DNA of 16,693 nucleotides from a virus (Duplodnaviria > Heunggongvirae > Uroviricota > Caudoviricetes), in IMG/VR virus record IMGVR_UViG_2563366923_000005; one strand, written 5' to 3'. Shown piece after piece: positions 1-15,708 of the stretch. Numbering within the stretch: the stretch's first letter is position 1; every line of letters begins with the position of its first letter. Below the pieces are notes generated by a model. It made no database searches and had not been told where the DNA came from. It saw nothing but the letters and a program-made list of their open reading frames with translations. Made by a program: the position numbers and the translations under genes.

Positions 1-309
1 TTAGTACTCAGGAAGGTTTTCTAAGTTATCCTTGGATGTACCATTAGGTCTAGTAGTAATGTAATCAGTACCGTTGACACGGTCCTTAACCACTTTTTGA
101 CCTTTCTTCCACTTACCGTCATCACCTTTGAAAATGGTGTAAAAGGTATAGCCGCTATCGATTTTATTCACTACCCACTGCCGTGTTTCTGATGTCCCTT
201 CTCCAACAGTATCGCCATTATCGACATGCACATACACATGGGTAATGTGAGTGTGTTTATCGTTATATCGGACTTTAGAAATAAGGTAATCAGCCCATTT
301 ATCAGTCAT
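1..309 (-). CDS. Small hypothetical protein, DUF3892-like by recollection; probable island cargo
   Basis: Complete 102-aa ORF (ATG at 307-309, TAA at 1-3). About 35% GC in a sampled 60 nt, versus GC-rich head genes. Contains an HITHV motif. Function unknown. Confidence 0.45.
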   Translation of the reverse strand: MTDKWADYLISKVRYNDKHTHITHVYVHVDNGDTVGEGTSETRQWVVNKIDSGYTFYTIFKGDDGKWKKGQKVVKDRVNGTDYITTRPNGTSKDNLENLPEY

Positions 310-459
310 ATTTCACCAGAAGTTTGAACAGGAAAAGCCCTGCAATACATTTATAAACAACAAAACAGACTCTTCCTATTCCACGACAGCAATGTAGTGA
401 TCTAGAGCAATTTTATATTCCTGATAACCTCAAGATAATTCTTCCTTTACGCTTTATGC

Positions 460-2121
460 TCAAATCCCATTAAATAAAGCCAGTCGCTCTTTGTGACTGT
501 CGCTCATATCGAAAGCAAAATCTTCGTGTTCTGCCTGGAATGTGCCGAACGCCATGAGTGCAGAAACCGCCGGGTCTATCTTGTTGGAGGATTTCTTTTT
601 GTTGGGTTTGATATTGGCGTTGGCGTCGGACTCCATCACCACGTTACCAATCGCCCAAGCCAGAACCGGATCGCCACGATGGCGCACCACCTTGCGGTTA
701 ACAAAAACCTCAAAAGATTTCGCTACCGGACTGAATTTCAGATAGGTTTGCGGGAACGGCTCCACATCGAGGCCGGCCCCCTGTAACTGGGTTCGCAAGT
801 GAGTGGCGTTCCACGTATCAAAGCCCACCAGCCGGATATTGAATGTTTCAGCATCGCGCAGGATATCGTCACGGATGCGGTCATAGTCGATACAGTCGCC
901 GGGGGTGGTTCGTATCCAGCCCGCTTTTACCCACTGGCGATAGATGGCGCGGTTTTTGTTAGCAACGTTAAGTAGCTGCGCTTCGGGCAGATAGTGCCGA
1001 GTAAGAAGCCTGATCTCGCGTTCAAACGGGAAAGCGTAACTCACGCTGGTAATATCGCTGGTTGAGGACAGGTCAAATCCGGCGTAACACTCCATCCCGA
1101 CCAGATCTTCTTCGGCATAATCGAGTGCACAGGCATCCCATGCCCCGGCACCCATCCACGGTGTAGAACCCTGACACCAGATATTGAAACGCTTGGTCAG
1201 CATCTCCACCCATTGCGACGGTATACCCCGCGCTTTTTGGATGGTGGATTCCAGCTTCGCCGCGTCAACGGACACATGCAGGTTAGGGTTGGCCTTGATC
1301 CACATTTCAGGCTGCTCAACCTCGCTTTCGTCGTCCAGCTCGTAGATCAGGACAAACAGCGAATCGTTGCTCTCTTCCCCGGCCAGAATCTGACAACAGT
1401 AGTCGTAATGCTGTTTACAGGCTGAGACAACGTTACTCCCGGCGGTCGTTATGGCGAACAAAATAGCCTCAGGACGTGCGCCCATACCCAGCTCAAGGGC
1501 GGAATAAACGCCGTTATCCGGGTGAAGGTGGTACTCATCGACAATCGCTAGGCTGGGGTTAGTCCCTTCAATGGTGGACGCTTTCGCCGCCAGCGGCTTT
1601 AGCAGGCTGTTGCTCTTCGGGAAAATGACTTTATGCGCCTGAATATTTACGCGCTTTTTCAGCGGTTTTGACAACAGGCACATCTGGCGGGCATCGTCGA
1701 ACACGATTCGGGCCTGATCCCGGCTCACCGCCGCCGTATAGATATCCTGCTGGCCCTTCTCCATTACCAGAAACCAGTTAGCCAGCATGGCGGCCACGGT
1801 GGATTTGGCATTCTTGCGCGGCACCTCAATAAAGGCGCTGCTGTACTTACGGCGGCCTGTCTCTCTGACTTTAAAGCCCAGCAGGTTAGCAAAGGCGAAC
1901 TGCTGCCACGGTTCCAGATCGATTGGCTGGCCCCGAAGCGGGCCTTTGACGTGAGGACAGAGCCGCGAGAACGCAATAAACCGCTCTACGGTCGCCGTAT
2001 CGAACTCATATCGGGGGTCATTCAGGTCTGAAAAGTACCTTTCCACGGCCTGTTTTACGCGCTTACAGGCCGGAATTTCGCCCGTTTTTATCGCATTTGC
2101 GTACTCATTCCAGACGGTCAA
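460..2121 (-). CDS. terL: Phage terminase large subunit
   Basis: 553-aa ORF with a P-loop-like segment (EVPRKNAKST) and typical length. The only possible start is TTG at 2119-2121, since an in-frame stop lies at 2143-2145 with no ATG or GTG between. It is preceded by GGAAGAGGAGGA and overlaps the terS 3' end by 17 nt. Confidence 0.9.
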   Translation of the reverse strand: MTVWNEYANAIKTGEIPACKRVKQAVERYFSDLNDPRYEFDTATVERFIAFSRLCPHVKGPLRGQPIDLEPWQQFAFANLLGFKVRETGRRKYSSAFIEVPRKNAKSTVAAMLANWFLVMEKGQQDIYTAAVSRDQARIVFDDARQMCLLSKPLKKRVNIQAHKVIFPKSNSLLKPLAAKASTIEGTNPSLAIVDEYHLHPDNGVYSALELGMGARPEAILFAITTAGSNVVSACKQHYDYCCQILAGEESNDSLFVLIYELDDESEVEQPEMWIKANPNLHVSVDAAKLESTIQKARGIPSQWVEMLTKRFNIWCQGSTPWMGAGAWDACALDYAEEDLVGMECYAGFDLSSTSDITSVSYAFPFEREIRLLTRHYLPEAQLLNVANKNRAIYRQWVKAGWIRTTPGDCIDYDRIRDDILRDAETFNIRLVGFDTWNATHLRTQLQGAGLDVEPFPQTYLKFSPVAKSFEVFVNRKVVRHRGDPVLAWAIGNVVMESDANANIKPNKKKSSNKIDPAVSALMAFGTFQAEHEDFAFDMSDSHKERLALFNGI

Positions 2122-2461
2122 GCTCGTCCTCCTCTTCCGTTTCTACCGGGTTACGGCGGCGGCTTACCGGATCAAAGCCCAGCAGCGACGACATTTTAAT
2201 CATGATTTTTTCAGCATCGGCCTTTGCACTCAGTGCAGGATTTCGGCTCTCGCCCCCCTGGCTGTTAACAATGCTGAACCCACGGCTGGCAAGGTCTTCC
2301 ACTGCTTTGCGGTACATCGAATAGTTGACGCAAAAAAGCTCAAGGTTGTTCCAGTCGGCGGGTGTCAGATCGCCACGCTCGGCCAGTTGCTTCGCTTTCG
2401 CTTTCCACTGCTGCGCGGCTAACTCATCAAGGTAAGCTGGCGGTTTTGGTGGTCTTGCCAT
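2105..2461 (-). CDS. terS: Phage terminase small subunit (P27-family-like)
   Basis: 118-aa product starting MARPPKPP (ATG at 2459-2461), with a pattern typical of P27-type small terminases (NPALSAKADAEKIM, FDPVSRRR). The ORF-track extension up to 2629 is G-rich and judged spurious. Confidence 0.8.
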   Translation of the reverse strand: MARPPKPPAYLDELAAQQWKAKAKQLAERGDLTPADWNNLELFCVNYSMYRKAVEDLASRGFSIVNSQGGESRNPALSAKADAEKIMIKMSSLLGFDPVSRRRNPVETEEEDELDRLE

Positions 2462-2736
2462 AAAAATTTCTCGTTTCCATCGCGTTTTATTTTCAAAAAA
2501 ATCACCGTGCGTAAAAATTTGAGGGGGCGGGCGGTGCCTGGCACCTTGAGGTTTGTCCTGAAAACCTCCCCCACCCCGTCCATGCGGCCTGTCAGCGGTT
2601 GCGGAAGCATTCCCGCAACTCCCGTTCACGCTCGCTCATACGCTGCACAGGCTGGCGCTCATTGCGTCTGCTTCGCCCCTGCATGAAGCCATCACGGCAG
2701 CGCATCAATGATCGGTACAGATTCACCACGTCTTTC
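2462..2736. other. Candidate cos / packaging-site region between HNH gene and terS
   Basis: 275-bp non-coding gap in the position where HK97-type genomes carry cos. It holds a GC-rich block at 2521-2578 with a perfect palindrome GGTGCC-T-GGCACC (2533-2545) and an inverted repeat GAGGTTT-N6-AAACCTC (2548-2568), flanked by a G-rich tract (2521-2534) and a C-rich tract (2565-2578). Confidence 0.35.
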
Positions 2737-3180
2737 TCATTCATTTCTGCCCTCATACATCCAGTCATTGCGATGGGCTGCACGCTCTTCCTGCTCTCGG
2801 TACAGCCCTGCCTTACGGTTCGCTTTGGTGATGGGGTCTTGCTGCGTGGTCTTCTGGTTATGATGCATCTGGCATAACGGCTGGTGATTCCACTCAGGCC
2901 AGAACAGAACATCATCACCGCCGTCGATAGGGATGATGTGATCGACAATCTTTGCAGGAACGTAGAGGCCCAACTTCTGGCACTCGACACATAGCGGCTG
3001 ACGTTTCAGATACTGAGCGCGGTACTTCTCCCATGATGCTGAGTAACCACGGGCGCGACGGTGGCCGCGTCTGGCATCTTCCGCCCGCCAGGCTTCGCGC
3101 TTGTGCTCATCGCACTTACCAGACTTCACCCGCTTATTGCATCCCGGCTCAGTGCACCGGCGCATTGGTTGCCACGGCAT
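2737..3180 (-). CDS. HNH endonuclease (terminase-associated)
   Basis: 147 aa from ATG at 3178-3180, overlapping the connector stop (ATGA). Cys clusters (CTEPGC, CDEH, CVECQ) and an HNH-like core (LCQMHHNQK). Position between connector and terS is typical of HK97-like packaging modules. Confidence 0.85.
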   Translation of the reverse strand: MPWQPMRRCTEPGCNKRVKSGKCDEHKREAWRAEDARRGHRRARGYSASWEKYRAQYLKRQPLCVECQKLGLYVPAKIVDHIIPIDGGDDVLFWPEWNHQPLCQMHHNQKTTQQDPITKANRKAGLYREQEERAAHRNDWMYEGRNE

Positions 3181-3479
3181 CAGTACACCCCCACATCGCG
3201 ATACACAGACCACAATGCAGAGATAGCAAGGGGGATCTCTTTCGCCTCCACATCACTAATCATCGTGCGGTATTCGTACAGTTGGGAAACGTACATAAGG
3301 CATCCGATCTTGATGGCAGGAGTAAATTCCAGGCCAGCACCGAACCGTTTACCGATATGCTTCTGGCAGACTTCCAGTGACGCTTCGATGTATGCCTGAA
3401 TCATTGCATCTTCATAGGAATCATCGTTATCGATGCGACAGTGAAGTTTTGCCTCATCAAGCCCAATTAGTTCACTCAC
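3180..3479 (-). CDS. gp6-like head-tail connector / DNA packaging protein
   Basis: 99 aa with GTG start at 3477-3479 preceded by GGGAGGG, and an in-frame stop directly upstream. N-terminus LDEAKLHCRIDNDDSYEDAMIQAYIEAS fits the gp6-like connector pattern. Confidence 0.75.
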   Translation of the reverse strand: MSELIGLDEAKLHCRIDNDDSYEDAMIQAYIEASLEVCQKHIGKRFGAGLEFTPAIKIGCLMYVSQLYEYRTMISDVEAKEIPLAISALWSVYRDVGVY

Positions 3480-3513
3480 GGCTTAAGCCCTCCCTTACAA
3501 AGCAACTCCAGCC

Positions 3514-4755
3514 TCATGACGCATCCTCCTTATTCTCAGAACCGGTACTGACCTTCACTTCCTGCTTCCATGCCTGGCTGTATTCGTCGCCCCCTTCACG
3601 CGGCGGCATCCCTTCGCGTTCGCGGGCTTCGTTCGGGTTCATGATCCCGTTCTTGATACCGCGCTCATAAGTTGCGTAACGTTCGGTTGGAGTGGCTCGA
3701 AGAAGATCGGCAGAGTCGAACTCCACCTGATAACGAATTCCGGGTACAGGCGATGCCACCAGCAACGCGGATTTAATCTGCTGCTCAAAGTTCGCCAGCC
3801 ACGGACGCATCGTCATGGTGAGAAATGCGCGGCTCGCCTCACTAAAGTTGCTGTAGGTGCTGTTGCTGTATTCCTGCAGGAAGATGGGGGACACGTTGAA
3901 CATGCGGGCAATGTCTTCAATGGAGAAGCGCCGGGAGGCCAGCCACTCAGCATCCTGATTGCTCATGCCAAGCTGCTTATAGTCCATGCCACCTTCAAGG
4001 ATCGGTGTTTTACCGGCATTTCTGGCACCTTTGTAGCGCTCAAGCGCGTCCAGCGCCTGTTTACCCTTCACACTATCGAGCCATTCAGCAGTAGTGACTA
4101 CGCCCGCCGCCATCATGCCATCTTTCATAATGCTGGCGCCGTGGCGCTGCTGGGCCAGACCTAACCCCAGCGCCTCACGGCAGATGGTGATCGGCGAGCG
4201 CCCCAGAAAACCATCATCGGTCGAGTAACGCAGGTGCAGAATCTCTTCCTGCAGGTAGGTGCGCACTGCCCCGGTAAACGGTTCAGTAACGGTGTATTTG
4301 TACTTATGCTGGCCGATACGCTCAGGAACAACCGCCCCCGGCGCATACGGATGCAGGGATTGCGGCTGGCCGTCACGGCCCCACTGGATCACCGCATAGG
4401 CGTTACCATTCAGCAGGCAATGACGCATCATCGTGCGCTTGAACTGGTAAGGCGTCTGACAGTCGTTCGGTTGCTCGTTAAGGAGAAAATCCACCGGGTG
4501 ATTGCTTAGCCACTCCCGCGCTTCTCGGCCGTTATCGTTGCGCACGCGGTAGAGGTAGCAGGGCATTGTTGCCACTGCCTCGCTGATAACTGATATGGCG
4601 TTCATGACCGCCGGCAGAGATTCCGCAGTACCGGCAGACACATATTCGCCTGATCCGGTATTTGGAATCCCTGCCATCGCCAGAAACTCATCAATCGTCA
4701 TGCTGCGCTGTTCGGATGGCTCAGATTTACGGCCAAAAGGCCAGATATTCCACAT
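3514..4755 (-). CDS. Phage portal protein (HK97 family)
   Basis: 413-aa ORF directly downstream of the protease gene with a 1-nt gap. Size and sequence character are typical of HK97-type portals. Confidence 0.88.
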   Translation of the reverse strand: MWNIWPFGRKSEPSEQRSMTIDEFLAMAGIPNTGSGEYVSAGTAESLPAVMNAISVISEAVATMPCYLYRVRNDNGREAREWLSNHPVDFLLNEQPNDCQTPYQFKRTMMRHCLLNGNAYAVIQWGRDGQPQSLHPYAPGAVVPERIGQHKYKYTVTEPFTGAVRTYLQEEILHLRYSTDDGFLGRSPITICREALGLGLAQQRHGASIMKDGMMAAGVVTTAEWLDSVKGKQALDALERYKGARNAGKTPILEGGMDYKQLGMSNQDAEWLASRRFSIEDIARMFNVSPIFLQEYSNSTYSNFSEASRAFLTMTMRPWLANFEQQIKSALLVASPVPGIRYQVEFDSADLLRATPTERYATYERGIKNGIMNPNEAREREGMPPREGGDEYSQAWKQEVKVSTGSENKEDAS

Positions 4756-4756
4756 A

Positions 4757-5317
4757 TCACAGCCCCGCTAAGTCAGCCCAGCGTCGGCGGTTATCACCAG
4801 CACGGCGCAGTTCAGGATGTTGGGAGAACAGAGAACGGTGCGCAATTTCCACGCCGGACTCAGGGTAAGCAGGCATAGAAGTAACGGTGATCTCCCGCAG
4901 CTCGGCAGCGGTAACAGTGCGAATATACGGTGTAGGAGTAATATCCCAGGACTCTTTCAGCGCACGGAATCCGAAGCTCATGCCGGAAATGTCTCCACGC
5001 TCCACCAGCTCCAGCACATCATTGCCAAGTTGGGTGTTTGGCGGGGTCAGCTCGAAACGCAGCCCGGTATCATCTTCGGACAACACCAGCGTGCCGGATT
5101 TGGTACGCCCCAGCAGTTGGGTATAGTTATGCTCGTACAGTGCACGCACATCGCTACCGGATGCCAGGCTGTCTTTAAACGCCCCCGGCGCAAACTGCTC
5201 GCGGAACTCATCCCAGATCACCTCTGACAGGCTGTTCCAGCGCACGGCATAGCCCACCAGCTTTTTGTTGCTGGCGCTCAGTTCGGAGGTACGGATTTCA
5301 AAATCGATTGTTTTCAT
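4757..5317 (-). CDS. Prohead maturation protease (HK97 family)
   Basis: 186 aa; the segment LVGYAVRWNSLSEVIWDEFREQFAPGAF matches the conserved N-terminal pattern of HK97 prohead proteases. GGAG lies 8 nt upstream of the ATG. Confidence 0.88.
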   Translation of the reverse strand: MKTIDFEIRTSELSASNKKLVGYAVRWNSLSEVIWDEFREQFAPGAFKDSLASGSDVRALYEHNYTQLLGRTKSGTLVLSEDDTGLRFELTPPNTQLGNDVLELVERGDISGMSFGFRALKESWDITPTPYIRTVTAAELREITVTSMPAYPESGVEIAHRSLFSQHPELRRAGDNRRRWADLAGL

Positions 5318-5368: not shown

Positions 5369-6535
5369 TCAGGAACCGGAACCGGAAAGCTCAAGCACCT
5401 TGATGGCGTTGGAGTCCACCACACCACCGCCTAGGTATTTATCGGTGTGCACCTTGTAGAAACCAGGTTCGGTGATGTTGTCGGGGCGGGTACGCACGCC
5501 AGTGGTGTGATCCACGATGAAGTAACCGCGCTTAAAGTCGCCGACTGCCAGGAACGCTTCACCCGCAGCCGCATCAGGCATGGTTTCCAGGTATTGAACC
5601 GGACGGCCAAGGAGGGTATCGGGAGAGTCAGCGACGAGACGATCACGCCAGATGTAATCCCCGTTGCCGTTTTTCAGCTTTTGCAGCGTAGCGGCAGTGT
5701 TGGAGTTCATCACCCATACGGCATTTTTGCGGTATTTGGCTTTCAGCTTATACAGCAGGTCGATAAGACCATCAGAGGAAACGGCAGCAGCCTCCATCTT
5801 CTCCAGCGTGCCGAACGGACGGGTTTTATCGCTGGTGGCCGCACGCGGATAGGACAGGAACCCTTTGGATTTTTTATCACCGTCGCCGTTCACAAAGTCG
5901 GTTTCTTCGGTAGCAGTGAAGGTGTCGGTAATTTCGGAAGACAGCCAGCCCAGAATATCAACTTCGGAGAAGTCGAGAATTTCCTGAGTGGTTTTCGGGT
6001 AGGCGTAGATCGGGTTGAGTTTGATATCAACGCGCTCCATCTTCGGTGTGCTGGTTTCGGTACGCGCTTCGCCTTCGGTGCCGCGCTTAACGGTAGTGCC
6101 GCCCACTGACACCAGCTTCTGGTATTCGTTGGTTTTGGTGGTCTTCACCGTGGCGATGGAGCGCATAACGCTGTCATCCTGCAACTGGCGCATGATCTCT
6201 TTGTCCAGCTCAGGGATAACGGTATAGCCGCCGTCAGCCTGCACTAACGTGGAGAGAGAGCGGGTATCGCCGGTCATGATGTAGTGGCGCAGCTCATCGT
6301 TGCTTACACCTTTACCTTCAACAGAAGTACCAGGCAAATTGCGCTGATCGTCGGCGACGGCCTCAAGGCGGGTAATTTCAACTTCAAGCGCATCAGCCTG
6401 GGCGCGGAGTTCGTCGAACTGCTTTCCCTCTTCATCGTTCAGGCTTCGCTTTTCGCTGTCAGCTTTTTCCAGCATGGAACGCATCTGGGTTTTGAGTGCG
6501 GTTTTCTGCTGGCGTAATTCAAGTAATTTCTTCAT
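5369..6535 (-). CDS. Major capsid protein (HK97 fold) with N-terminal delta (scaffold-like) domain
   Basis: 388 aa from ATG at 6533-6535 (MKKLLELRQQK). The N-terminal ~100 aa are coiled-coil rich, like an HK97 delta domain, followed by a capsid-like body. The track extension to 6652 is judged spurious. Confidence 0.9.
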   Translation of the reverse strand: MKKLLELRQQKTALKTQMRSMLEKADSEKRSLNDEEGKQFDELRAQADALEVEITRLEAVADDQRNLPGTSVEGKGVSNDELRHYIMTGDTRSLSTLVQADGGYTVIPELDKEIMRQLQDDSVMRSIATVKTTKTNEYQKLVSVGGTTVKRGTEGEARTETSTPKMERVDIKLNPIYAYPKTTQEILDFSEVDILGWLSSEITDTFTATEETDFVNGDGDKKSKGFLSYPRAATSDKTRPFGTLEKMEAAAVSSDGLIDLLYKLKAKYRKNAVWVMNSNTAATLQKLKNGNGDYIWRDRLVADSPDTLLGRPVQYLETMPDAAAGEAFLAVGDFKRGYFIVDHTTGVRTRPDNITEPGFYKVHTDKYLGGGVVDSNAIKVLELSGSGS

Positions 6536-6563
6536 GGAGTGGTTTCCGTAACAATTAATGTTG

Positions 6564-6656
6564 AGACGTGAAACCTGCGCTTGGAGGGATGTCCACCTGG
6601 AAAGGAAACCGTCGCAGAACGGGAAAAAACCAGGTGGACAGTGGCGGCTCACGTCT
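6564..6656. promoter_or_regulatory. Nested inverted repeats upstream of the capsid gene
   Basis: Perfect 10-bp inverted repeat GTCCACCTGG (6591-6600) / CCAGGTGGAC (6630-6639) around a 29-nt A-rich spacer, nested inside a 7-bp inverted repeat AGACGTG (6564-6570) / CACGTCT (6650-6656). It lies 27-124 nt upstream of the capsid ATG on the minus strand. Confidence 0.35.
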
Positions 6657-6797: not shown

Positions 6798-7310
6798 ATG
6801 GACTTCGATTTTGATGATATGGCATACCCGGATATTTTTTTAATTTCCGGCGAGGAGTTTAAAGGAAGCCGGAACACAGGAAAAAATCAGGTAGATATCC
6901 CGTTTACTGACGAACCGCAAATTGAATTGGGCGATATTCTGATTCAGAAGATTGGAAGCCGTGAGTTAAGCCTTAAAGTTGTCGATCTTTCAATATCAAA
7001 GAATGGAACGCTGAACGTGGGTACAACGCATCCTCACTTACTGACGTTATCCGTAGAGAATCTTTCTTCCAACGCACACAGGACAGCAAAGAGTATGAAT
7101 ACTTTTAATATTGGCTCCGTCAGTGGTGAGCAAGTTCAAATAGGTGAAAGTAATCATATGCTGGTGAATATCAGTATTACTGAACTTGTCGAGAAAGTGG
7201 CTAACTCTGGCGATCCACAGGCTAAATCAATGTTGAAACAGTTACTGGAAAATAGCACCGTTGCCAGTATCGTTGGCGCTGGCGCTTCTGCGCTATTAGG
7301 TCTGCTTTAA
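6798..7310 (+). CDS. Hypothetical protein with C-terminal hydrophobic Gly/Ala-rich tail; accessory gene on the opposite strand
   Basis: 170-aa ORF with GGGGGA 4 nt before the ATG. C-terminus TVASIVGAGASALLGLL looks like a single tail anchor or glycine-zipper segment. About 43% GC in a sampled 60 nt. Only sizeable plus-strand gene inside the island besides the RHH gene. Confidence 0.6.
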   Translation: MDFDFDDMAYPDIFLISGEEFKGSRNTGKNQVDIPFTDEPQIELGDILIQKIGSRELSLKVVDLSISKNGTLNVGTTHPHLLTLSVENLSSNAHRTAKSMNTFNIGSVSGEQVQIGESNHMLVNISITELVEKVANSGDPQAKSMLKQLLENSTVASIVGAGASALLGLL

Positions 7311-7315
7311 AATAT

Positions 7316-7335
7316 GGCCTGGGAAAAACCAGGCC
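7316..7335. terminator. Bidirectional intrinsic terminator between convergent accessory genes
   Basis: GGCCTGG-GAAAAA-CCAGGCC hairpin with TTT downstream on plus and an A-rich stretch upstream. A second 8-bp hairpin GGCTGGAT / ATCCAGCC (7349-7375) spans the stop codon of the minus-strand gene. Confidence 0.6.
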
Positions 7336-7357
7336 TTTAGCTTATATGGCTGGATGA

Positions 7358-7693
7358 TTATTCTTTATCCAGCCCCCACTGATAGAAAGCCCAGCTTGCC
7401 GTTGATTGTGCGCTATGGATAGCGTTCTCAAGGCCAGAGGTTGGGTACGACAAATCAGCCGCCATCCTCTGTAGAAGATCGAGGTAAGCGCTGGCGTCTT
7501 TCGACAACTCTTGCTCCCCTTCTTCCAGCCCAGACTGGTACGATTCCAGATCAAGCTTTTCAGAAGTGACAAACGCACTCAGAGCCAGAAAATCCGTCAC
7601 TGTAATCTCATCTTTATTTGAAAGCTCATCAACGGCGCTGTAGAGAAACTTAAGATCGCTCATATGCCCGTTATCTTTGCCAATCAGTTTCAT
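7358..7693 (-). CDS. Hypothetical acidic protein (accessory / possible interference or immunity function)
   Basis: 111-aa ORF with AGAGGT 6 nt upstream of the ATG at 7691-7693. Acidic and probably helical, with no recognisable catalytic motif. Lies immediately downstream of the iteron origin. Confidence 0.6.
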   Translation of the reverse strand: MKLIGKDNGHMSDLKFLYSAVDELSNKDEITVTDFLALSAFVTSEKLDLESYQSGLEEGEQELSKDASAYLDLLQRMAADLSYPTSGLENAIHSAQSTASWAFYQWGLDKE

Positions 7694-8034: not shown

Positions 8035-10170
8035 TTATTCTTCTCCATCTTCCGCAACCTGGTGAAGCACATAAACGTTGATTTGACGCCCATCAATACG
8101 CGGGGATTTCTGCTGGTATCCACGCCCGCTGGACGGCTCAGAAAGCAAGCCAGCAGCGGCAAGCACGCGGGCAAACTGCCTGGCGTTAAAGCCCTGAGCT
8201 ATCTCCTTCTCAAACGTTGCGGGGAACGTATAGAACACCAGCGGCGAATCATCATGGCTGCTTTTGCGCTTTCGATACCCGGCCAGATCGCGAATCGGCA
8301 TACTGGACGGATCATAGGGCAACGGTGCAAAGCGGCTTAAACCGTAGGCATTCAGGAACGCCTCGCACTGCTCGATGATCTGCTGGTGCTCTTTGTTACC
8401 CGTGCCGAACTCTTTCACCCAGGCGTTAAAGCTATGCTGGATAGCGTCACGGCTGGCCTGTTCACTCCATCCGGTGATTGATGCACCAGTTACCAGCGCG
8501 GCTTCGAGGATTGCAAAGCGTTCGGCCACGCGGTGTACCTGCTCACCGTAATCCGCCGGGATGAGGCCGCGCCAGCGCGTTTGCGCGTCACGCACCGCCT
8601 GTTTAGCCTCCTGCTGGTTAGCCGCCAGCCATTTAACCCACTCACGCCCCGCCGCCCCGTGGTTATCAATCCAGGCTTCTTTCAGTGCGTCAGCATGAGC
8701 CTTGCCGTTTGGCAGACCGTTAAAGGCCGTCGATTTCTCCATAGGGATGTTGAGCAAGCGCACCAGTTGGCCCGCTTTCACTTTCAGCCCACCAGCAGCC
8801 AGGAAGGTTTCAATATCCATTTCCCCGGTGCTGATCGCCACAGTGCGCCAGCGTTTAAGCTCCCGATTGCCGCCCTCTTTGGCTCCCTGCAACTTTCCGG
8901 CACCGTTAAACAGGGTGTAAGCAGACGTGGCAACATCTTTGGCACTGCTGCCCTGTCCTACCTCATCAAGCGGTAACAGGCTGTCGTTATGCGCCTCCGC
9001 TTCGTTTGCTATGCCAAGCGCAGTACCGTACCAGGTAAGCCGCAACGCATCAGGCTCACCCCACAGGCTGCTCGCAATATTGGCGGTAGTGGTCTTACCG
9101 GCGCTCGACTGCTCGAACAAATGGACGCCGAAACCATCAGCACCCACCAGGCCAATAAGCGGCGCGGATAATGCCGCTGCCACGCCCAGCATCATGGACG
9201 GATTGCCCCCGGCCAGACGGGCGACGGAATCCCGCCAGGTGGCAGCAGTACCAGCAATGGCATACCCGGAAGATGCAGCGCTGCGACCGTTAAAGAGAAT
9301 GGGCGTCTCTGGATCACCAATCACTTCACCATCAGGCATGATATATGCGCCATGATGCCAGCCAGTGGTATGGGTGATAATCCATTCCCGATCAGTGCCG
9401 CTTTGCTGCAACCAGTCGGCCAGAATCGCCCGGAAGGTGCTTTTAGTGGTCACATTCACCCCACCAGCTTTAAGTGAGCGCCAGCCGTCGCGCTCACCGA
9501 TATCAGCACAGGGGATCGCCCTGGTAATATCTTCATGGCCACGCGGCGAACGCCAGCGCAAAACAAGATAGCGCTCTGCCCCGTCACTACCGGAGCCGAC
9601 CACCTCAAGAGGCGAGCACAGCCACGTTTCGTTATTGATGATCTCGCCACTATCCTTGTCCACCTTTGGCGTGATCCAGTACAGGCCATCGCTCCGGCTC
9701 TCCACGCGGGGTTTGAGTTCATCGCCCGGTTCAGGCTTTGGCTCCCGTTTTTTTACAGGCAGGTTCACCACAATGCTTTCCCCGCGTTCGGCCTCTTCTT
9801 TGAGACGTGGAAGCCTGCCCGTCCAGTCCTCCTTCGGCTGAGGCTCAAACATGCCATTAAACAGCCTGGCCTCTTTCACATCCGCCAGCGCCAGTTTGGT
9901 TGCGATAGTGCTTATCTGCATTTCGGAAAGTTCGCCAGCGCGGATCACACGAACACTGCGACGGCCGTTATCAACAATGTTTAACCGTTCCAGTTCCGCA
10001 AGTTGCCTTTTACCCAGATAAACAGGCGGTACATCATCCCATGCCCTTTTACCTTCGCTCTCGATCCAGTGCTGCACATGTGAATAGGCATCTTCACCCG
10101 CAAAGATAATCGCCTCTGTAAATTTATCTTTCGGCAGGAATTTAATATTCGGGGCATTCTTCATCTTCAT
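8035..10170 (-). CDS. Replication initiator / primase-helicase (DUF927-type P-loop NTPase)
   Basis: 711 aa with Walker A motif FEQSSAGKTT. Size and position (last gene of the operon, next to the iterons) match satellite or PICI Rep proteins. AAGGTG RBS; start overlaps the upstream gene's stop (ATGA). Confidence 0.85.
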   Translation of the reverse strand: MKMKNAPNIKFLPKDKFTEAIIFAGEDAYSHVQHWIESEGKRAWDDVPPVYLGKRQLAELERLNIVDNGRRSVRVIRAGELSEMQISTIATKLALADVKEARLFNGMFEPQPKEDWTGRLPRLKEEAERGESIVVNLPVKKREPKPEPGDELKPRVESRSDGLYWITPKVDKDSGEIINNETWLCSPLEVVGSGSDGAERYLVLRWRSPRGHEDITRAIPCADIGERDGWRSLKAGGVNVTTKSTFRAILADWLQQSGTDREWIITHTTGWHHGAYIMPDGEVIGDPETPILFNGRSAASSGYAIAGTAATWRDSVARLAGGNPSMMLGVAAALSAPLIGLVGADGFGVHLFEQSSAGKTTTANIASSLWGEPDALRLTWYGTALGIANEAEAHNDSLLPLDEVGQGSSAKDVATSAYTLFNGAGKLQGAKEGGNRELKRWRTVAISTGEMDIETFLAAGGLKVKAGQLVRLLNIPMEKSTAFNGLPNGKAHADALKEAWIDNHGAAGREWVKWLAANQQEAKQAVRDAQTRWRGLIPADYGEQVHRVAERFAILEAALVTGASITGWSEQASRDAIQHSFNAWVKEFGTGNKEHQQIIEQCEAFLNAYGLSRFAPLPYDPSSMPIRDLAGYRKRKSSHDDSPLVFYTFPATFEKEIAQGFNARQFARVLAAAGLLSEPSSGRGYQQKSPRIDGRQINVYVLHQVAEDGEE

Positions 10171-10535
10171 CAGTGCAACACCTTATTGGACATATCCGCG
10201 CCCAGGTCTTCATGCAGGTACTCAAGGTGGCAGCTTTTCACTATCTGCAACCCCATTTCGTTAATATCGCCATCGTCGGTAAAGCAGGTCAGCAGAATAT
10301 CCCGCAAACGCCTTAACCCCTCATCGCGCCCGAACTCTTCAAAGCAGCCAAAAATCATATACTTCATCAATACGTTTTCAGTTACGCGCGGCTCCAGCGT
10401 GAAGCGATAGCGGGCCATATACTTATCGCTTTCCACCAGCAAGGTTGCCGAACCGGTTTCCGCTGTCTGGTGAGCAATACAGGCTTCGGTCAGTTTGCGG
10501 AACAATGGGCCTATCACTTCAAAAATATCGGTCAT
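10170..10535 (-). CDS. Hypothetical protein (replication-operon member)
   Basis: 121-aa ORF; its stop overlaps the rep start and its start overlaps the upstream gene's stop. No recognisable motif. Confidence 0.6.
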   Translation of the reverse strand: MTDIFEVIGPLFRKLTEACIAHQTAETGSATLLVESDKYMARYRFTLEPRVTENVLMKYMIFGCFEEFGRDEGLRRLRDILLTCFTDDGDINEMGLQIVKSCHLEYLHEDLGADMSNKVLH

Positions 10536-10900
10536 TGTGGGATACCTCCGCTCATCTGAAATTTGCCAAGTAATGGGTGATACCAGTATGCAGAGCCATA
10601 TTTGCGCTTAGCACTGCGCAGCACCAACCGTGCCGCTTCCCTGAACTTTTCATCAGGTGCAACGAACCCGCCTGATTTCAGTTTAACCAGCATCACCCCT
10701 GTGTTTTTCGCCAGCTCCTCAGCCTTTTTGGTTGAGATACCGTATTCAGCAGCCAGTGTTGCTACTGGCGTCATACCCGGAGGGATTTCTCCGCCCTGAC
10801 TATCGGTAAGTGATTTAACCTGAGCCTCAAGGCGCAAGACCTTCTCAACCAGCAGATCAACGCGGTTAGCCAGTTCGTTAAACTTCACATTGCTGATCAT
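10532..10900 (-). CDS. Hypothetical protein, possible DNA-binding (HTH-like segment)
   Basis: 122 aa with an N-terminal coiled-coil-like region and a possible helix-turn-helix (TPVATLAAEYGISTKKAEELAK). Start ATG overlaps the upstream stop (ATGA). Confidence 0.6.
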   Translation of the reverse strand: MISNVKFNELANRVDLLVEKVLRLEAQVKSLTDSQGGEIPPGMTPVATLAAEYGISTKKAEELAKNTGVMLVKLKSGGFVAPDEKFREAARLVLRSAKRKYGSAYWYHPLLGKFQMSGGIPQ

Positions 10901-11124
10901 GGTCTTGCCTCCTGAGTTTCAGGGTCTGAAAAAGTAGAAATATCCAGTGAGTTTGCCAGTTCGTCAGAAAGGCGCTGAGCCAGGTGCGTTAAACTCATAA
11001 CATGGATACGCTCCGCCTCCCCCTTGATAGTTGAAAGGTAAGCAGCACATGACATGAGCGCAGCAACCTCTTGCGCCAGCAACAGCAAATCTTTTTTGCT
11101 GCGGTAGGTGTAAAAGTTATCCAT
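10897..11124 (-). CDS. Hypothetical small protein
   Basis: 75 aa from ATG at 11122-11124 (MDNFYTYRSKK). The track extension to 11184 overlaps the upstream gene and is judged less likely. Confidence 0.5.
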   Translation of the reverse strand: MDNFYTYRSKKDLLLLAQEVAALMSCAAYLSTIKGEAERIHVMSLTHLAQRLSDELANSLDISTFSDPETQEARP

Positions 11125-11314
11125 TGAGCGCCCCCTTTTTATCCTGCTCCAGCATAAAGGTGGCAATATCGCCAGAAATATCACGGGCCAGATCGATGAG
11201 GTTATCCCTCTCGTGACCTGAAATTTCGCAGTCTGAAATCACCAGAAGCAACGTTGCCAACTGACAAGCGCGGGACGTGGCTTTTTCTCTGCCAAGAGTT
11301 TCAATGTCATACAT
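11117..11314 (-). CDS. Hypothetical small protein
   Basis: 65-aa ORF whose start overlaps the Icd-like gene's stop. Part of a chain of overlapping start/stop codons. Confidence 0.5.
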   Translation of the reverse strand: MYDIETLGREKATSRACQLATLLLVISDCEISGHERDNLIDLARDISGDIATFMLEQDKKGALNG

Positions 11315-11519
11315 GTCGCACCTCCAGCATCTGAAATGCGTGGAACGGCAGGCGGGCAGCGAAAATAAGAGTTACGCCGGGCATGGTGTCGCGGGCTTCC
11401 CGTTCACTGGATGCGTTGACGTAAATCACCAACGGTTTGGCGGTAGGGTAGCGCTCAGAGGCGGAGAGAAAACGCCATGTAAATTCAGGGCGAGTTTGGG
11501 TAGACTGATTGTCAGCCAT
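11307..11519 (-). CDS. Icd-like small protein (P4/P1 family, putative cell-division inhibitor homolog)
   Basis: 70 aa from ATG at 11517-11519 (MADNQSTQTRPEFTWRF...FAARLPFHAFQMLEVRHV) with GAGGT RBS. The FTW and FAARLP pattern matches Icd-like proteins of P4-like elements as I recall them. The 250-aa track ORF is a spurious upstream extension. Confidence 0.55.
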   Translation of the reverse strand: MADNQSTQTRPEFTWRFLSASERYPTAKPLVIYVNASSEREARDTMPGVTLIFAARLPFHAFQMLEVRHV

Positions 11520-11709: not shown

Positions 11710-11895
11710 ATGGCAACAGGTGCGAAGAATGCAAAGTCACAAATGACCACAGTTCGAATCCCCCATGATGTGATGGAAGATATCGAACTTTTTAAACATG
11801 AAGGTGAAAGTACCGCAGGGTTTCTTGTCACTGCTGCGAAAGGCGAAATCAAACGCCGCCAGCGCCAAAAGGCAAAAGAAGAGCCAAAATCCTGA
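11710..11895 (+). CDS. Small ribbon-helix-helix-like DNA-binding protein (putative island regulator)
   Basis: 61-aa ORF with AAGGAG 9 nt upstream. TTVRIPHDVMEDIELFKHEGESTAGFLVTAAKGEI fits a beta-strand plus two helices (RHH/Arc-like), followed by a basic tail. Divergent from the replication operon. Confidence 0.55.
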   Translation: MATGAKNAKSQMTTVRIPHDVMEDIELFKHEGESTAGFLVTAAKGEIKRRQRQKAKEEPKS

Positions 11896-11902
11896 ATAAA
11901 AT

Positions 11903-12018: not shown

Positions 12019-12798
12019 TTATTCAGCGTCAGCATTCGGCACCTCCGGCAATACGCCACCAGCGATCAGTTTCTTCGTTAACCACTGCTCCCCCTTCCCC
12101 GTCAGCATCGTTGTGAATGAGGCTCTTACTTCGCCATTCGTTTCATACGTTCCCTGGCGAACGGCAAAATAACCGCTATCGATATAACGCTGCATAGGCA
12201 GGTTGTGGCGCTGGCCACCGTTGATGAGAATCCCCTGTTGCCTCATCCAGCCGAATAATTTGAAGGGGCCAAGCCCTACGGCTTTGGCATAGTTGGAAAT
12301 GGAAATACCCTTGCTGATCTCCGCAACGCGATCAGCGAAATCAACTTTTGGCGCAGCGGCCACCAGCCGGTTTTCAAGTTCGCTTGCCTTTTCGGCCAGA
12401 TCAGCAGCAAGGCGCAGGGCTTCCGGTAACGTCTGGGGGATATTAGCGGCGGCTTTTGCCTGGCGTTCGCAGTTGATGAAGTAGCGGCGCACCTCCCGCC
12501 CTTTTTCGTTGCGCTCAACCATTGCCAGCTCTTTACCCATGTCGATGGTGATCAGGTAATCATGTGCAATTTGTTGGCGATATTTTGCGCTCCCCGAAAC
12601 GGGGGCGCTCAAATTTTCAACCACCGTAAAATCTACACCAGCAGTAAAACCATACTGGCTGATACGCCCCTTAATCCATGTGGTGAAATCACGCCCAACG
12701 CCGAGAAACTCATGGAGTTTTTTTGCACTGACCAGCGATACCGTCACGCCGCCAATATTTCCGGGGTTAACCGGAACCAACTCATTTAATTTTTGCAT
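12019..12798 (-). CDS. Phage antirepressor (AntA N-terminal domain + KilAC C-terminal domain)
   Basis: 259 aa from ATG at 12796-12798. HDYLITIDMGKELAMVERNEKGREVRRYFINCERQ matches the AntA signature; C-terminal NLPMQRYIDSGYFAVRQGTYETNGEVRASFTTMLTGKGEQWLTKKL matches the KilAC/ANT pattern. Confidence 0.85.
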   Translation of the reverse strand: MQKLNELVPVNPGNIGGVTVSLVSAKKLHEFLGVGRDFTTWIKGRISQYGFTAGVDFTVVENLSAPVSGSAKYRQQIAHDYLITIDMGKELAMVERNEKGREVRRYFINCERQAKAAANIPQTLPEALRLAADLAEKASELENRLVAAAPKVDFADRVAEISKGISISNYAKAVGLGPFKLFGWMRQQGILINGGQRHNLPMQRYIDSGYFAVRQGTYETNGEVRASFTTMLTGKGEQWLTKKLIAGGVLPEVPNADAE

Positions 12799-12808
12799 AG
12801 CGCCCCCC

Positions 12809-13093
12809 TTACGCGGATTTACGGTTGTAAGGGGTGTTGACGTTCTCAACAGCAGGTGGATTGCGAACCCACCAAAGAACATCTGACAGAAGCCATGCGC
12901 AACTATTACGGCCAAAGTGGCAGCGTGGCGGGAATTTACCTTCGTTCTCCATATACCAGCGGGTGGAACGGGAAAGGCTGGTTATTTCGAAGCATTCACT
13001 TTCACGAATACGGCGATCAAACTTAATGCCATATTCTGCGAGAATGGTGCGGCGTTGTTCTGGTGTTGGCGGGGTAAAACGAGTATTTGACAT
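12809..13093 (-). CDS. alpA: AlpA-family transcriptional regulator (excisionase-like)
   Basis: 94 aa; LSRSTRWYMENEGKFPP...GRNSCAWLLSDVLWW fits the AlpA HTH pattern. GGAGGA RBS. Immediately upstream of the antirepressor gene. Confidence 0.8.
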   Translation of the reverse strand: MSNTRFTPPTPEQRRTILAEYGIKFDRRIRESECFEITSLSRSTRWYMENEGKFPPRCHFGRNSCAWLLSDVLWWVRNPPAVENVNTPYNRKSA

Positions 13094-13187
13094 ACTTCCT
13101 CCACTTAACGCAATCAGAAGGAGCCTTTCCTGTCTGTTCTTGCGTTGTGGGGGAAGTATTTGTCTAAAGTAAATTAATAAAAATGGC

Positions 13188-13264
13188 TTCTAAAATTTAA
13201 AAAGGCGTGTTTAATTCTAAAAAGGGTAATCTAATGATTAGAACACCCTTTCTAACGTTTAGAA
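13188..13264. repeat. Cluster of TTCTAA / TTAGAA hexamers in the alpA upstream region
   Basis: TTCTAA at 13188, 13215 and 13250; TTAGAA at 13238 and 13259, including TTAGAA-CACCCT-TTCTAA-CGT-TTAGAA. AT-rich 180-bp intergenic region. Confidence 0.3.
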
Positions 13265-13274
13265 GCTACTACAA

Positions 13275-14216
13275 TTAAAACTTAAAGTGCCTACTAATGT
13301 ATGAGGTAATTGTGTCAACGCTCTTGACCGGGCATTGTCCGTCAGGAAATAAGTGCACTCTGTCGGAAAGTTCTCTGGCCCATGCTGAGAAATTGTAGCT
13401 CCCATCTTTTTTCAAGCACTTTTCATTGAAAATATCAGAATTTGTTTCTTTGAATTTTATTGCAGCACTTAAAATTAATAGTTCATTTCGTGCATGTTTT
13501 TCTTTTGCACTTTCTGAGCGTTTATTAATACTATTTTTTGAATCAGAGTCTAAATCAGGTCGTTCAATATCATTGAGCATTGGCAGCTTATCGAAATCAA
13601 GGCCGCTTTCCATAAGCCGTTTAATATCATAATTAGTAACCCATAAATCATCATACCCGGCTTCAAACTCATAAGGGTCGAAATTAAACCTCTTGCCATT
13701 AGCCTGATCGATAAAAGGTTGGGCTGGCAGAATCTGAATTACTGGAGTTTCACCGCCTGTGAGGCACGGGAAAAATCCGGGGAAAAAATCCTTCACAGGT
13801 AAAGATGACTCAAACTGATCGGGCATTACCCGCCACAGACCTAATGCAAAGCCATATCCGACAAGGAACCCTTTACTTTCTTGTTCCGTAAAGATGTCTG
13901 AACCAGATAATAGTTTATCAGGTTCAAAATAACGGCCATTAGTAAATTCAATAAAAGAGTGATTCGTTATCGCGCGGGTTTGCCCTGACATAGAATTAAA
14001 AGTACGAGGAAAATATAGTGATGAATACCAATCCTTTACATCATTAAAATCTTCACGAAGAAGGATTCGGCAGTGAAACCTTTTCAGCATCATGCTTATT
14101 TCGATTTTATTTTCAATAGCAAGGTTGATCAAATCTGACGGTTCAACCCCCAGAAATGATGCACCTCTGGACAATCTACAATATGAAAATGGAATCTTTA
14201 TTTCTTTTTCTGCCAT
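13275..14216 (-). CDS. Hypothetical protein, AT-rich cargo gene between int and alpA (candidate defence / accessory function)
   Basis: 313-aa ORF with GAGGG RBS. 27% GC in a sampled 60 nt, far below the head genes. No family recognised by eye. Contains YDDLWVTNYDIK, a D-x8-D-x-K arrangement weakly reminiscent of a PD-(D/E)xK core. Confidence 0.65.
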   Translation of the reverse strand: MAEKEIKIPFSYCRLSRGASFLGVEPSDLINLAIENKIEISMMLKRFHCRILLREDFNDVKDWYSSLYFPRTFNSMSGQTRAITNHSFIEFTNGRYFEPDKLLSGSDIFTEQESKGFLVGYGFALGLWRVMPDQFESSLPVKDFFPGFFPCLTGGETPVIQILPAQPFIDQANGKRFNFDPYEFEAGYDDLWVTNYDIKRLMESGLDFDKLPMLNDIERPDLDSDSKNSINKRSESAKEKHARNELLILSAAIKFKETNSDIFNEKCLKKDGSYNFSAWARELSDRVHLFPDGQCPVKSVDTITSYISRHFKF

Positions 14217-14308
14217 AACGCTACCCTCAACGCCCCTAATTAACTTGCGAGCCAGGCGGGTAGGGTTTCCCGCTTTTCGGTTGGCCGACCTAGACTCGCA
14301 AGACCAGT

Positions 14309-15535
14309 TTAATCTCTATTCGCTACAGTTAACAGAACCACATTTTGATGATTACCCGCAAGAAGTTCTAAGCGATCATACCACTTATTCAGCGCGTCCA
14401 GTTTTTCCGGCAGATACAGACTACGGTTATAAATCGCCATAACCCCTGGCATTGAGTGGCCCAGCAACTGTTCAACAACGTGCGGAGCTATACCCATATT
14501 ATTCATATGCGTTGCAAGCGTTCGCCGTAGATCATGCAATGTCCACGGTTCAGAATGCCCCAGTTTTTTATAAACACTACGGCCCCACTGGCTAACCGCT
14601 TCGCTATTCTTCACAACCCCAAGAAGGTAGCCGGATGATTTTGTTTCATCGTGGAGCATTTCAATAAATGAACGCATCGCCTCTGGAACTGGACGCACAA
14701 TCTTTTCACCGCCTTTACTATGCGCTTTTGGTACTGTCCACACCCACGCCTCCATATCCCATTCGGCCCACTCTGACAATCTGGCCTCCTGGGTGCGGCA
14801 ACCAAACAAAGTGGTGATCCTGAGTAAGTTTGTGTAGTAAGGCAGAAAAACATCGCCGGACGATATAGCAGCCCACAATCCCCCAACCTCTTTATCTTTC
14901 AATACCCGATCTTTTTTCGCCTGCTTTTTACCAACATCGGGAATACTCAAATCTTCAAGGGCGGTACTGACGGCGTAACGGCGAACGCGGCAGAATTTCA
15001 GAGCCTGCTTACACATCTGGAATACATAACCCGCAGCAACTGGCGTTTTCTTTTTCATTCTGTCGAAGCAGTCAAGCCAGTATCGGGTTTCGCAGTCAGC
15101 GAGCGCCATTTTCCCAATGTAAGGGTAAATATGTTTGCGTAGCTCCGCTTTGTGCCGCTCAACGTTCGCACGATTTTCTTCCGCATATTCGCGTATCCAG
15201 TATTCGATAGCTTCCTGCACCGTGACCGGTTTAAGCGTTTCCTGAGTAGTTAGCGCCAATTGGTGCTTTGGGTCTTTACCAGAGGCCAACCACTGACGAC
15301 ATTTATCACGCGAGGAACGGGCCTCTTTGAGACTCATATCAGGGTAGCGCCCCAGAGTCAGCCGATGCAGCTTCTGCCCGTCGAGTCGGTAAGTAAACAC
15401 CCAGCTAATGCCACCAGCTTTCGTTACCTTAGCACTCAACCCGGCACCATCAGCATAAAACTCAATCTTACTGGCCGGGATGCCATGTAATCCCTTTAAC
15501 TTCCTGTCGCTCAGTTTGTTAAGTTCGCCAGCCAT
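14309..15535 (-). CDS. int: Tyrosine site-specific integrase (P4-type)
   Basis: 408 aa; C-terminal catalytic region with WTLHDLRRTLATHM, LLGHS and AIYNRS (R, H-x-x-R, Y). Lies at the element terminus next to the chromosomal junction. Confidence 0.9.
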   Translation of the reverse strand: MAGELNKLSDRKLKGLHGIPASKIEFYADGAGLSAKVTKAGGISWVFTYRLDGQKLHRLTLGRYPDMSLKEARSSRDKCRQWLASGKDPKHQLALTTQETLKPVTVQEAIEYWIREYAEENRANVERHKAELRKHIYPYIGKMALADCETRYWLDCFDRMKKKTPVAAGYVFQMCKQALKFCRVRRYAVSTALEDLSIPDVGKKQAKKDRVLKDKEVGGLWAAISSGDVFLPYYTNLLRITTLFGCRTQEARLSEWAEWDMEAWVWTVPKAHSKGGEKIVRPVPEAMRSFIEMLHDETKSSGYLLGVVKNSEAVSQWGRSVYKKLGHSEPWTLHDLRRTLATHMNNMGIAPHVVEQLLGHSMPGVMAIYNRSLYLPEKLDALNKWYDRLELLAGNHQNVVLLTVANRD

Positions 15536-15557
15536 AGACCACCACCCAGCCCAAAGT

Positions 15558-15578
15558 GTTTATACAAATGTTTATACA
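15558..15578. repeat. Tandem direct repeat GTTTATACA x2 (possible integrase arm-type sites / int promoter region)
   Basis: GTTTATACA at 15558-15566 and 15570-15578 (12-bp period), 23 bp upstream of the int start codon, within AT-rich DNA between int and the junction. Confidence 0.3.
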
Positions 15579-15708
15579 GAATTGCTTGCATAATAGCATA
15601 AACAACAAAAAGCACTGGAACAATATACAGTCACAATTTCATATAACCAATTGATTTTAAATAAAATATAAAAACCACCCCAAAGCATGAAAACAGCTAA
15701 TCTGACAG

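Follow-up and report, generated by a model that had tools for sequence, protein, structure and literature searches.

The 16,693-nucleotide stretch of DNA analysed here (IMG/VR record IMGVR_UViG_2563366923_000005; called the window in what follows) is part of an Escherichia coli chromosome and carries an integrated phage satellite. That this island is a capsid-forming phage-inducible chromosomal island (cf-PICI) is a near certainty. The explanation that best accounts for the whole, and which we consider very probable, is a cf-PICI delimited by attachment (att) sites at the core gene fis and immobilised by the deletion of its head-tail adaptor gene; it is most likely a recently immobilised, transfer-defective derivative rather than a working tail pirate. 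Gene content, boundaries, homologies, the deletion and its rarity are read directly from the sequences compared, with gene assignments taken from Pfam, NCBIfam and the RefSeq annotation of strain KFu015. A first-pass annotation, made from the window alone, had proposed a capsid-forming PICI-like satellite, and the gene order and protein identities shared with the prototype cf-PICI, EcCIEDL933, bear this out.

The window matches the chromosome of E. coli KFu015 (NZ_CP147130.1) over its full length with 14 substitutions, of which one (position 7043) falls in the island and the other 13 are clustered in yhdJ. In KFu015 fis ends 157 bp to the left of window position 1 and is followed by dusB, prmA and panF; this flank contains no phage genes. 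Tail and lysis genes directly to the left had been named beforehand as the finding that would speak for an ordinary rearranged prophage; the four core genes found there instead, together with the match to EcCIEDL933, support the capsid-forming PICI reading. On the right, an 80-bp direct repeat (attR, 15707–15786) consists of the last 15 nt of fis, stop codon included, and the fis terminator, in agreement with the right end placed at 15708 in the first-pass annotation. The left copy (attL) lies 94–173 bp to the left of position 1, beside fis and outside the window; 79 of the 80 positions are identical in the two copies, with one mismatch, and BLAST recovers the same repeat. E. coli C has the empty site, with fis and yhdJ 85 bp apart and one att copy (attB). 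The att repeats bracket a 15,880-bp insertion, which is the predicted size of the excised circle, and with the empty attB they identify the island as a site-specific insertion, placed by the tyrosine integrase into the 3′ end and terminator of fis. The left end, earlier thought to be missing, amounts to attL and about 90 bp of non-coding DNA of the element. A tRNA as integration target was considered and rejected: ARAGORN finds no tRNA genes in the window, and the target is the fis 3′ end. The chromosomal flank beyond the island holds yhdJ (15809–16693, plus strand), a host DNA adenine methyltransferase gene, with which the window has 23 coding sequences (CDSs); 20 of the 22 island genes lie on the minus strand and 2 on the plus strand.

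The head and packaging genes that had been read as capsid, protease, portal, connector, HNH, TerS and TerL on one strand are each recovered by Pfam, all on the minus strand. The major capsid protein (5369–6535) has the HK97 fold and falls in the satellite clade (Phage_capsid, 5e-68; 65% identical to EcCIEDL933). It is followed by a prohead serine protease (4757–5317; Peptidase_S78, 6e-48; 64% identical), the portal (3514–4755; Pfam, 1e-95; 80% identical, with HK97-family portals matched in the PDB), a gp6-like head-tail connector (3180–3479; Phage_connect_1, 2e-7; 61% identical) and an HNH endonuclease, the packaging cofactor of HK97-type terminases (2737–3180; HNH, 3e-4; 75% identical). A 50-residue open reading frame (ORF; 2592–2744, minus strand) is 42% identical (E = 5e-11) to the small hypothetical ORF between HNH and terS in EcCIEDL933, and by position corresponds to the published EcCIEDL933 gene 1792. 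The module closes with TerS of the P27 family (2105–2461; Terminase_4, 3e-25; 81% identical) and TerL (460–2121; Pfam ATPase and nuclease domains; 82% identical over all 553 residues). A DUF3892 protein (1–309, minus strand; Pfam, 4e-12) occupies the accessory slot after terL and is the last gene before attL; PADLOC gives no match for it.

The capsid is of the satellite rather than the ordinary phage kind. Its best solved homologue is PDB 9gyi (‘Major head protein’, 385 residues; E = 2e-159), which is as long as the EcCIEDL933 capsid and about equally similar to the window capsid. BLASTP finds no significant similarity between the window capsid and HK97 gp5. A search with the EcCIEDL933 capsid gives four ‘phage’ records at more than 58% identity, each of which is a cf-PICI, a record of cf-PICI size (15–16.5 kb) or a fragment; the best ordinary phages reach at most 40%. 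The early observation that tail, baseplate and lysis genes are missing also stands: no tail, baseplate, holin or lysin family is found in any of the 23 CDSs with Pfam, nor in the 10 unassigned CDSs with PHROGs, the 96 forbidden profiles of SatelliteFinder lying outside this search.

The replication and integration backbone, read at first as integrase, AlpA, antirepressor, Icd-like gene and P-loop Rep, is likewise what Pfam and NCBIfam return. The tyrosine integrase (14309–15535, minus strand) has a P4-type arm-binding N-terminus (Arm-DNA-bind_3, 3e-19; Phage_integrase, 1e-16) and is 50% identical to EcCIEDL933 Int; the AlpA-family regulator (12809–13093, minus strand; Phage_AlpA, 2e-10) is 47% identical to its EcCIEDL933 equivalent. 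The 711-residue DUF927 primase-replicase/helicase (‘pri-rep’; 8035–10170, minus strand; DUF927, 5e-50) carries the Walker A motif SSAGKTT, gives a weak match to the Cch1 replicative helicase and is 63% identical over 705 residues to its EcCIEDL933 counterpart. Directly 3′ of this gene, between 7733 and 8011, are 11 copies of TGTTGGTTCA in both orientations (at most one mismatch); 1.1 copies are expected by chance and none of 200 shuffles reaches 11, so the iterons reported in the first-pass annotation are real. From their position and the precedent of Staphylococcus aureus pathogenicity islands (SaPIs) and other PICIs, we infer that the iteron block acts as the replication origin.

Alqurainy et al. 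(10.1101/2022.09.08.507074) described the cf-PICI family; SatelliteFinder (PMC10085698) provides a catalogue of it, and He et al. (10.1101/2025.02.11.637232) have since extended it. The SatelliteFinder model has 11 core components and forbids tails and holins, elements with 10 of the 11 being Type B and those with nine Type C (PMC10085698). The island has 10 of the 11, and no forbidden component was found with Pfam and PHROGs. It combines an integrase and att bounds, AlpA as the regulator, for which MerR or Stl would also qualify, a primase-replicase with adjacent origin, capsid, protease, portal, gp6-like connector, HNH (at a borderline Pfam score) and its own TerS and TerL in the conserved gene order, without tail or holin genes, and its size is in keeping with the roughly 14–16 kb of the family. 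The component that falls short is the Phage_HCP adaptor, of which a 13-codon remnant is left. By descent the island is a deletion derivative of a complete member, so its membership stands and its function is in doubt.

EcCIEDL933 lies in the chromosome of E. coli O157:H7 EDL933 (NZ_CP008957.1, 1680329–1694760), and its gene order is that of the island: int, alpA, a hypothetical gene, the Icd-like gene, small ORFs, DUF927, accessory genes, capsid, protease, portal, head-closure, connector, HNH, small ORF, terS (P27 family), terL and one more gene. The two are similar in size (15.9 kb for the island, 15.4–15.5 kb for EcCIEDL933) and differ in site, EcCIEDL933 sitting in the roxA/phoQ region and the island at fis/yhdJ. 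EcCIEDL933 has SSB and PerC accessory genes and keeps an adaptor gene, placed between those for portal and connector, whereas the island has an AntA/KilAC antirepressor, a 313-residue protein, a YlcI-like gene and DUF3892, and no adaptor.

The deletion is defined by comparison with the cf-PICI that E. coli GN06667 carries between fis and yhdJ (locus L004). Window positions 1–3514 align to L004 1501–5014 at 99.7% identity and positions from 3508 onward align to L004 from 5302 onward, on the other side of a 111-codon Phage_HCP gene. In the relatives the intact gene encodes a 111-residue product (PF05521); the window retains its last 12 residues only, the portal and connector genes are separated by just 34 bp, and no second copy of the adaptor was found in the window. 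The junction (3508–3514) falls in a 7-nt imperfect repeat, CCAGCCT / CCGGCCT, identical at six of seven positions, and reads GCAACTCCAGCCTCATGACGCATCC in the deleted variant. The 294-bp loss is in frame and leaves a 13-codon ORF (3476–3517, minus strand; MRLELLCKGGLKP followed by a stop codon), annotated here as the remnant of the head-completion or ‘head-tail adaptor’ gene. It still overlaps the portal stop codon (ATGA) and the connector start codon (GTGA), and since both overlaps are retained, polar effects are unlikely and downstream expression should be intact. The remaining island genes are of full length relative to their homologues. The deletion is rare: the junction region occurs in 10 of 5,426 complete E. 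coli genomes, nine of which have the gene intact, with only KFu015 carrying the deletion, and the junction 25-mer has no match in GTDB representative genomes, IMG/VR or JGI metagenomes. The loss of this gene, one of two for head-tail joining, had been overlooked in the first-pass annotation.

The 13 substitutions that separate the window from KFu015 in yhdJ lie at 16159–16685, within the last 535 bp of the gene, the first 350 bp being identical. In its yhdJ segment the window is 100% identical to the widespread allele, which E. coli C, ATCC 8739 and others have, and the pattern looks like a recombination breakpoint inside yhdJ. As the yhdJ 3′ sequences differ, the deleted island is present in at least two genomes that differ right beside it.

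What the deletion does can be judged by the genetics of EcCIEDL933, where knockout of any gene of the packaging module abolished transfer (one hypothetical gene did so only in part) and the helper did not compensate; loss of gene 1792 severely reduced transfer. In necks of the SPP1 and HK97 type the Phage_HCP protein acts as a plug in the portal channel and forms the surface on which the tail docks. Given the lost gene, the EcCIEDL933 genetics and this role, leakage of DNA and failure of tail docking are to be expected. By this analogy the island can probably still excise, replicate, build heads and package DNA, and probably leaks that DNA from the heads and cannot acquire tails, which would leave it stranded. 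We regard a defect in transfer as likely, and hold back from a firmer statement because the essentiality is known for an adaptor that is 40% identical and belongs to a different island.

Several points weigh against an immobilised island, and most of them would favour a cf-PICI that is fully functional without an adaptor of its own, either because a helper or a co-resident satellite supplies head completion or because the protein is dispensable for the tails used. All other genes are intact and the deletion is in frame, non-polar and preserves translational coupling, which is also the pattern of a tolerated or selected change. The occurrence of the same deleted island beside two different yhdJ 3′ sequences implies that it has moved or has persisted through flanking recombination. 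The SatelliteFinder authors state that many elements short of one core component are functional (PMC10085698). The essentiality of the adaptor comes from EcCIEDL933 and not from this lineage, the deleted gene (in its intact GN06667 version) being only 40% identical to the EcCIEDL933 adaptor. The HNH assignment misses the Pfam gathering cutoff by 0.1 bit (21.3 against 21.4), and induction, capsid size and the cos site are extrapolated from relatives. Set against adaptor independence are the absence of any single EcCIEDL933 packaging-gene mutant that a helper phage could rescue, the report that cf-PICI proteins interact with cf-PICI partners only, the lack of a second adaptor copy in the window and the near-singleton status of the deletion (one of 10 close relatives, one of 5,426 genomes and none in three large collections). 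On balance such a satellite seems unlikely. A little less likely again is that the island is alive in one of three specific ways: by borrowing head completion and so gaining a new tail range, as a fixed producer of tail-less capsids with a benefit to the host, or by spreading through flanking homologous recombination, to which the two yhdJ 3′ sequences beside the island might point.

Two readings that would place the island outside the family are far less probable than these. A decayed HK97-like prophage, stripped of tail, lysis and immunity genes through deletions and rearrangements, would account for head genes of HK97-type Pfam families and for a structural gene that has demonstrably been deleted. 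It fits poorly with a precise att-bounded unit of 15.9 kb with core genes on both sides, with an architecture that recurs at other integration sites, in E. coli, in Klebsiella and in the prototype, with a PICI-type backbone of int, alpA and pri-rep with an iteron origin, and with the satellite affinity of the nearest capsids found with the EcCIEDL933 query, set against the 40% ceiling for ordinary phages; all ORFs but one are intact, and no tail, lysis or immunity modules contiguous with the head module were found. We consider it very improbable. Even more remote is that the island remodels capsids of its helper as classical PICIs and P4-like satellites do, with which it has the int, alpA, Icd-like and primase backbone in common. 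Portal, TerL, capsid, protease and connector, all encoded here, are forbidden or absent in the PICI model, and portal, connector and adaptor are forbidden in a classical PICI, whereas the island has both portal and connector. As to P4, Pfam detects in no CDS a family of the proteins that set capsid size or decorate the capsid (sid, psu, delta) or of a capsid-redirecting protein, and neither a psu-delta-sid operon nor epsilon emerged from the Pfam/PHROG check, which used no dedicated profiles. Classical Gram-negative PICIs (EcCICFT073, EcCIED1a) and P4-like satellites share with the island the integrase, AlpA, Icd-like protein, primase-replicase, rep-adjacent origin and helper-dependent spread, but use helper capsid proteins and lack the set of portal, TerL and capsid.

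A transfer-defective cf-PICI can be set against the cycle described for the family, in which a helper activates alpA, the island excises and replicates from its own origin, and its DNA, in unit length, is packaged by its own TerS, TerL and HNH exclusively into its own small T=4 heads. Those tail-less, DNA-filled heads are released and then join compatible siphovirus tails. In Gram-negative PICIs AlpA is the switch that the helper phage turns on (10.1101/2022.09.08.507074). Heads of EcCIEDL933 measure 47.5 nm and hold 15.5 kb, and helper-induced excision and replication, small capsids of the island's own and transfer on helper tails are known only for EcCIEDL933, EcCIGN02175 and KpCIDSM30104, on which the following steps are modelled. 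A helper phage would turn on alpA, and the island would leave the chromosome as a 15.9-kb circle, which the DUF927 primase-replicase would copy, starting at the iteron origin that directly follows the replicase gene. Small heads of the T=4 class would assemble from the capsid protein, S78 protease and portal, and the size of the island would fit a head such as that of EcCIEDL933. Each head would then receive a single island genome, cut at the cos site ahead of terS and packaged by TerS, TerL and HNH. In relatives that are intact, closing the portal and docking a siphovirus tail would fall to the gp6-like connector together with the adaptor. Here the 294-bp in-frame deletion at the imperfect 7-nt repeat has removed the adaptor gene, and the resulting island would excise, replicate and fill heads that neither retain DNA nor join tails.

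The putative cos site is a G+C-rich, partly palindromic intergenic region of 130 bp upstream of terS (2462–2591), 84% identical to the corresponding region of EcCIEDL933. Both ends of the linear vB_KppS-Ant record, a cf-PICI deposited as a ‘phage’, fall in the region upstream of terS, and the permuted copy that PQ569648.1 contains has its break points exactly at the terS ATG and at window position 2597, within the 3′ end of the 50-residue ORF. As all three observations point there, cos probably lies within 2462–2591. PQ569648.1 was rejected as a guide to the exact cos ends: it is joined to unrelated DNA and looks chimeric, and indicates a region but no cut site.

The reversal of capsid, protease and portal relative to HK97, to which the first-pass annotation had drawn attention, is real when checked against the HK97 gene order, but it is the conserved, published architecture of the family and not a local peculiarity. 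HK97 has terS, terL, portal, protease, capsid, gp6 and gp7, then tail genes. The families of TerS/TerL, HNH, portal, S78 protease, HK97-fold capsid, gp6 and gp7 are shared with HK97 and with helpers of the HK022/HK106 type, and in the circular genome HNH adjoins cos and terS in the island as in HK97. The island differs in the reversed order of capsid, protease and portal on the same strand, in its size (15.9 kb against 39.7 kb) and in that no tail, lysis or immunity genes were found. In the circular form HNH, cos, terS and terL are adjacent as in HK97-type phages, and only the block of capsid, protease, portal and neck genes is rearranged.

The closest relatives in E. coli (GN06667, GN05476, KCJ3K291, PCP06171 and others) are cf-PICIs between fis and yhdJ that use the same att site and keep the 111-residue Phage_HCP adaptor. 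In the comparison with GN06667, DNA from terL to the connector is 99.7% identical and from portal to capsid 91% identical; GN06667 has a D5/primase-type replicase and other accessory genes, where the island has the DUF927 protein. The island combines an EcCIEDL933-type DUF927 replicase with a GN06667-type packaging module and is therefore a mosaic of modules, a feature described for the family (PMC10085698). The GN06667 adaptor and the connector are 40% and 61% identical, respectively, to those of EcCIEDL933, the same figures as published for EcCIGN02175 (10.1101/2025.02.11.637232); this equality suggests, without proving it, that the packaging module is of the EcCIGN02175 type (He et al.).

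Cf-PICIs of Klebsiella (KpCIDSM30104 type; vB_KppS-Ant, LR881103.1; the PQ569648.1 element) share the architecture and have the adaptor intact. Their copies in phage records are circularly permuted (attP form) and filed as phage genomes, whereas the island is integrated. The PQ569648.1 element is 97% identical to the island and has the genes for the DUF927, 313-residue and 170-residue proteins, without DUF3892; it has one attP junction and is circularly permuted. The vB_KppS-Ant record, linear and 16.5 kb long, is of an ‘induced prophage’ with the same layout. From these two records it follows that close relatives excise and are recovered in phage preparations.

The cf-PICI family is already described, and in concept the island brings little that is new. 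Members of the family rank among the most abundant phage satellites and carry DNA between genera by means of their own DNA-filled heads and the tails of unrelated phages. This island is a cleanly delimited member, whose att sites at fis are placed exactly and which has an iteron origin and a probable cos region. Its sole unusual feature is a natural, non-polar knockout of the adaptor, which with the connector determines tail specificity according to the literature (10.1101/2025.02.11.637232). This copy thereby offers a ready-made test of adaptor essentiality in its lineage and an example of satellite decay after integration. Were the island alive without the gene, the adaptor would be a dispensable or exchangeable part of tail piracy. 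For annotation, several records deposited as phages are cf-PICIs.

Between int and alpA, the island encodes a 313-residue protein (13275–14216, minus strand; GC content 0.39) that matches phrog_7144 over its full length. Pfam yields nothing significant for this protein, and searches of NCBIfam, PADLOC and PDB sequences yield no match. Its homologues (38–99% identity) occur in Enterobacterales only (Klebsiella, Pectobacterium, Serratia, Yersinia, Enterobacter), and one is found in the same slot of Klebsiella cf-PICIs that have another replicase and another att site. An AlphaFold model (14 sequences, mean per-residue confidence [pLDDT] 66) has no Foldseek match in the PDB at E ≤ 0.001, and the N-terminal ~35 residues give non-significant overlaps of 32–38 residues with winged helices of the Xis/excisionase type. 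The variable slot downstream of alpA holds the AntA/KilAC antirepressor (12019–12798, minus strand; AntA, 1e-23; ANT, 5e-26), of which GN06667 and EcCIEDL933 have no homologue in the same slot; theirs are unrelated proteins that match no Pfam families. One may speculate that a satellite antirepressor could act on the repressor of a resident prophage, as P4 epsilon acts on that of P2.

Further along are a small YlcI/YnfO-family protein (11710–11895, plus strand; NF041551, 1e-16) and an Icd-like protein (11307–11519, minus strand; NF033153, 6e-17), which has a counterpart at the same position in EcCIEDL933. Four small ORFs upstream of the replicase (10170–10535, 10532–10900, 10897–11124 and 11117–11314, minus strand; RefSeq annotation of KFu015) match only PHROG families without assigned function. 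A variable region before the packaging operon (6798–7693) contains a 111-residue ORF (7358–7693, minus strand) for which no function was matched and, upstream of the capsid gene, a 170-residue ORF (6798–7310, plus strand) that opposes the rest of the island. The 170-residue protein has chance-level PDB matches only; an ORF of equal length, position and orientation occurs in Klebsiella cf-PICIs (L010–L012, 15231–15743), and this conservation may mean that it is more than cargo. A bidirectional terminator-like hairpin (7316–7335) separates the two ORFs and is the exception in a scan of the window in which promoter-like sites were at chance expectation and terminator-like ones below it. PADLOC finds no defence system among eight proteins (six of unassigned function, the antirepressor and the 50-residue ORF), and NCBIfam in the same search names only the Icd-like and YlcI-like genes, plus the weak helicase match of the DUF927 protein.

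In the head module, the mechanical ORF list overextends the capsid gene (427 residues from a GTG, 5369–6652) and terS (174 residues from a GTG, 2105–2629). Alignment to EcCIEDL933 and the RefSeq annotation put the real starts at ATG codons at 6535 and 2461, and the spurious N-terminus of TerS spans the putative cos region. After 9gyi, the next solved capsids are not of HK97 but of the Rhodobacter capsulatus gene transfer agent (RcGTA; 6tb9 and 6tba, E about 1e-49), and RcGTA portals are also among the PDB matches of the window portal. This hints that the cf-PICI head module and gene transfer agent heads may come from the same sub-lineage of HK97-fold systems. A gene transfer agent was itself considered on account of these matches and rejected, the island being att-bounded, equipped with integrase and replicase and far better matched by cf-PICIs.

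Among the phage records, ‘Klebsiella phage P12620-1’ (PQ569648.1, 106.5 kb) ends in a cf-PICI at 90645–106503 that is abruptly joined to unrelated DNA, and the record is probably a chimeric assembly. In ‘Escherichia phage vB_KppS-Ant’ (LR881103.1) the annotation gives the name tape measure protein to a 765-residue accessory gene product that has no Pfam match. Short contigs filed under Salmonella phage S.Kent 1-2-1 and Escherichia phage ECO95 1-6-1 also contain pieces of the island at 95–99% identity.

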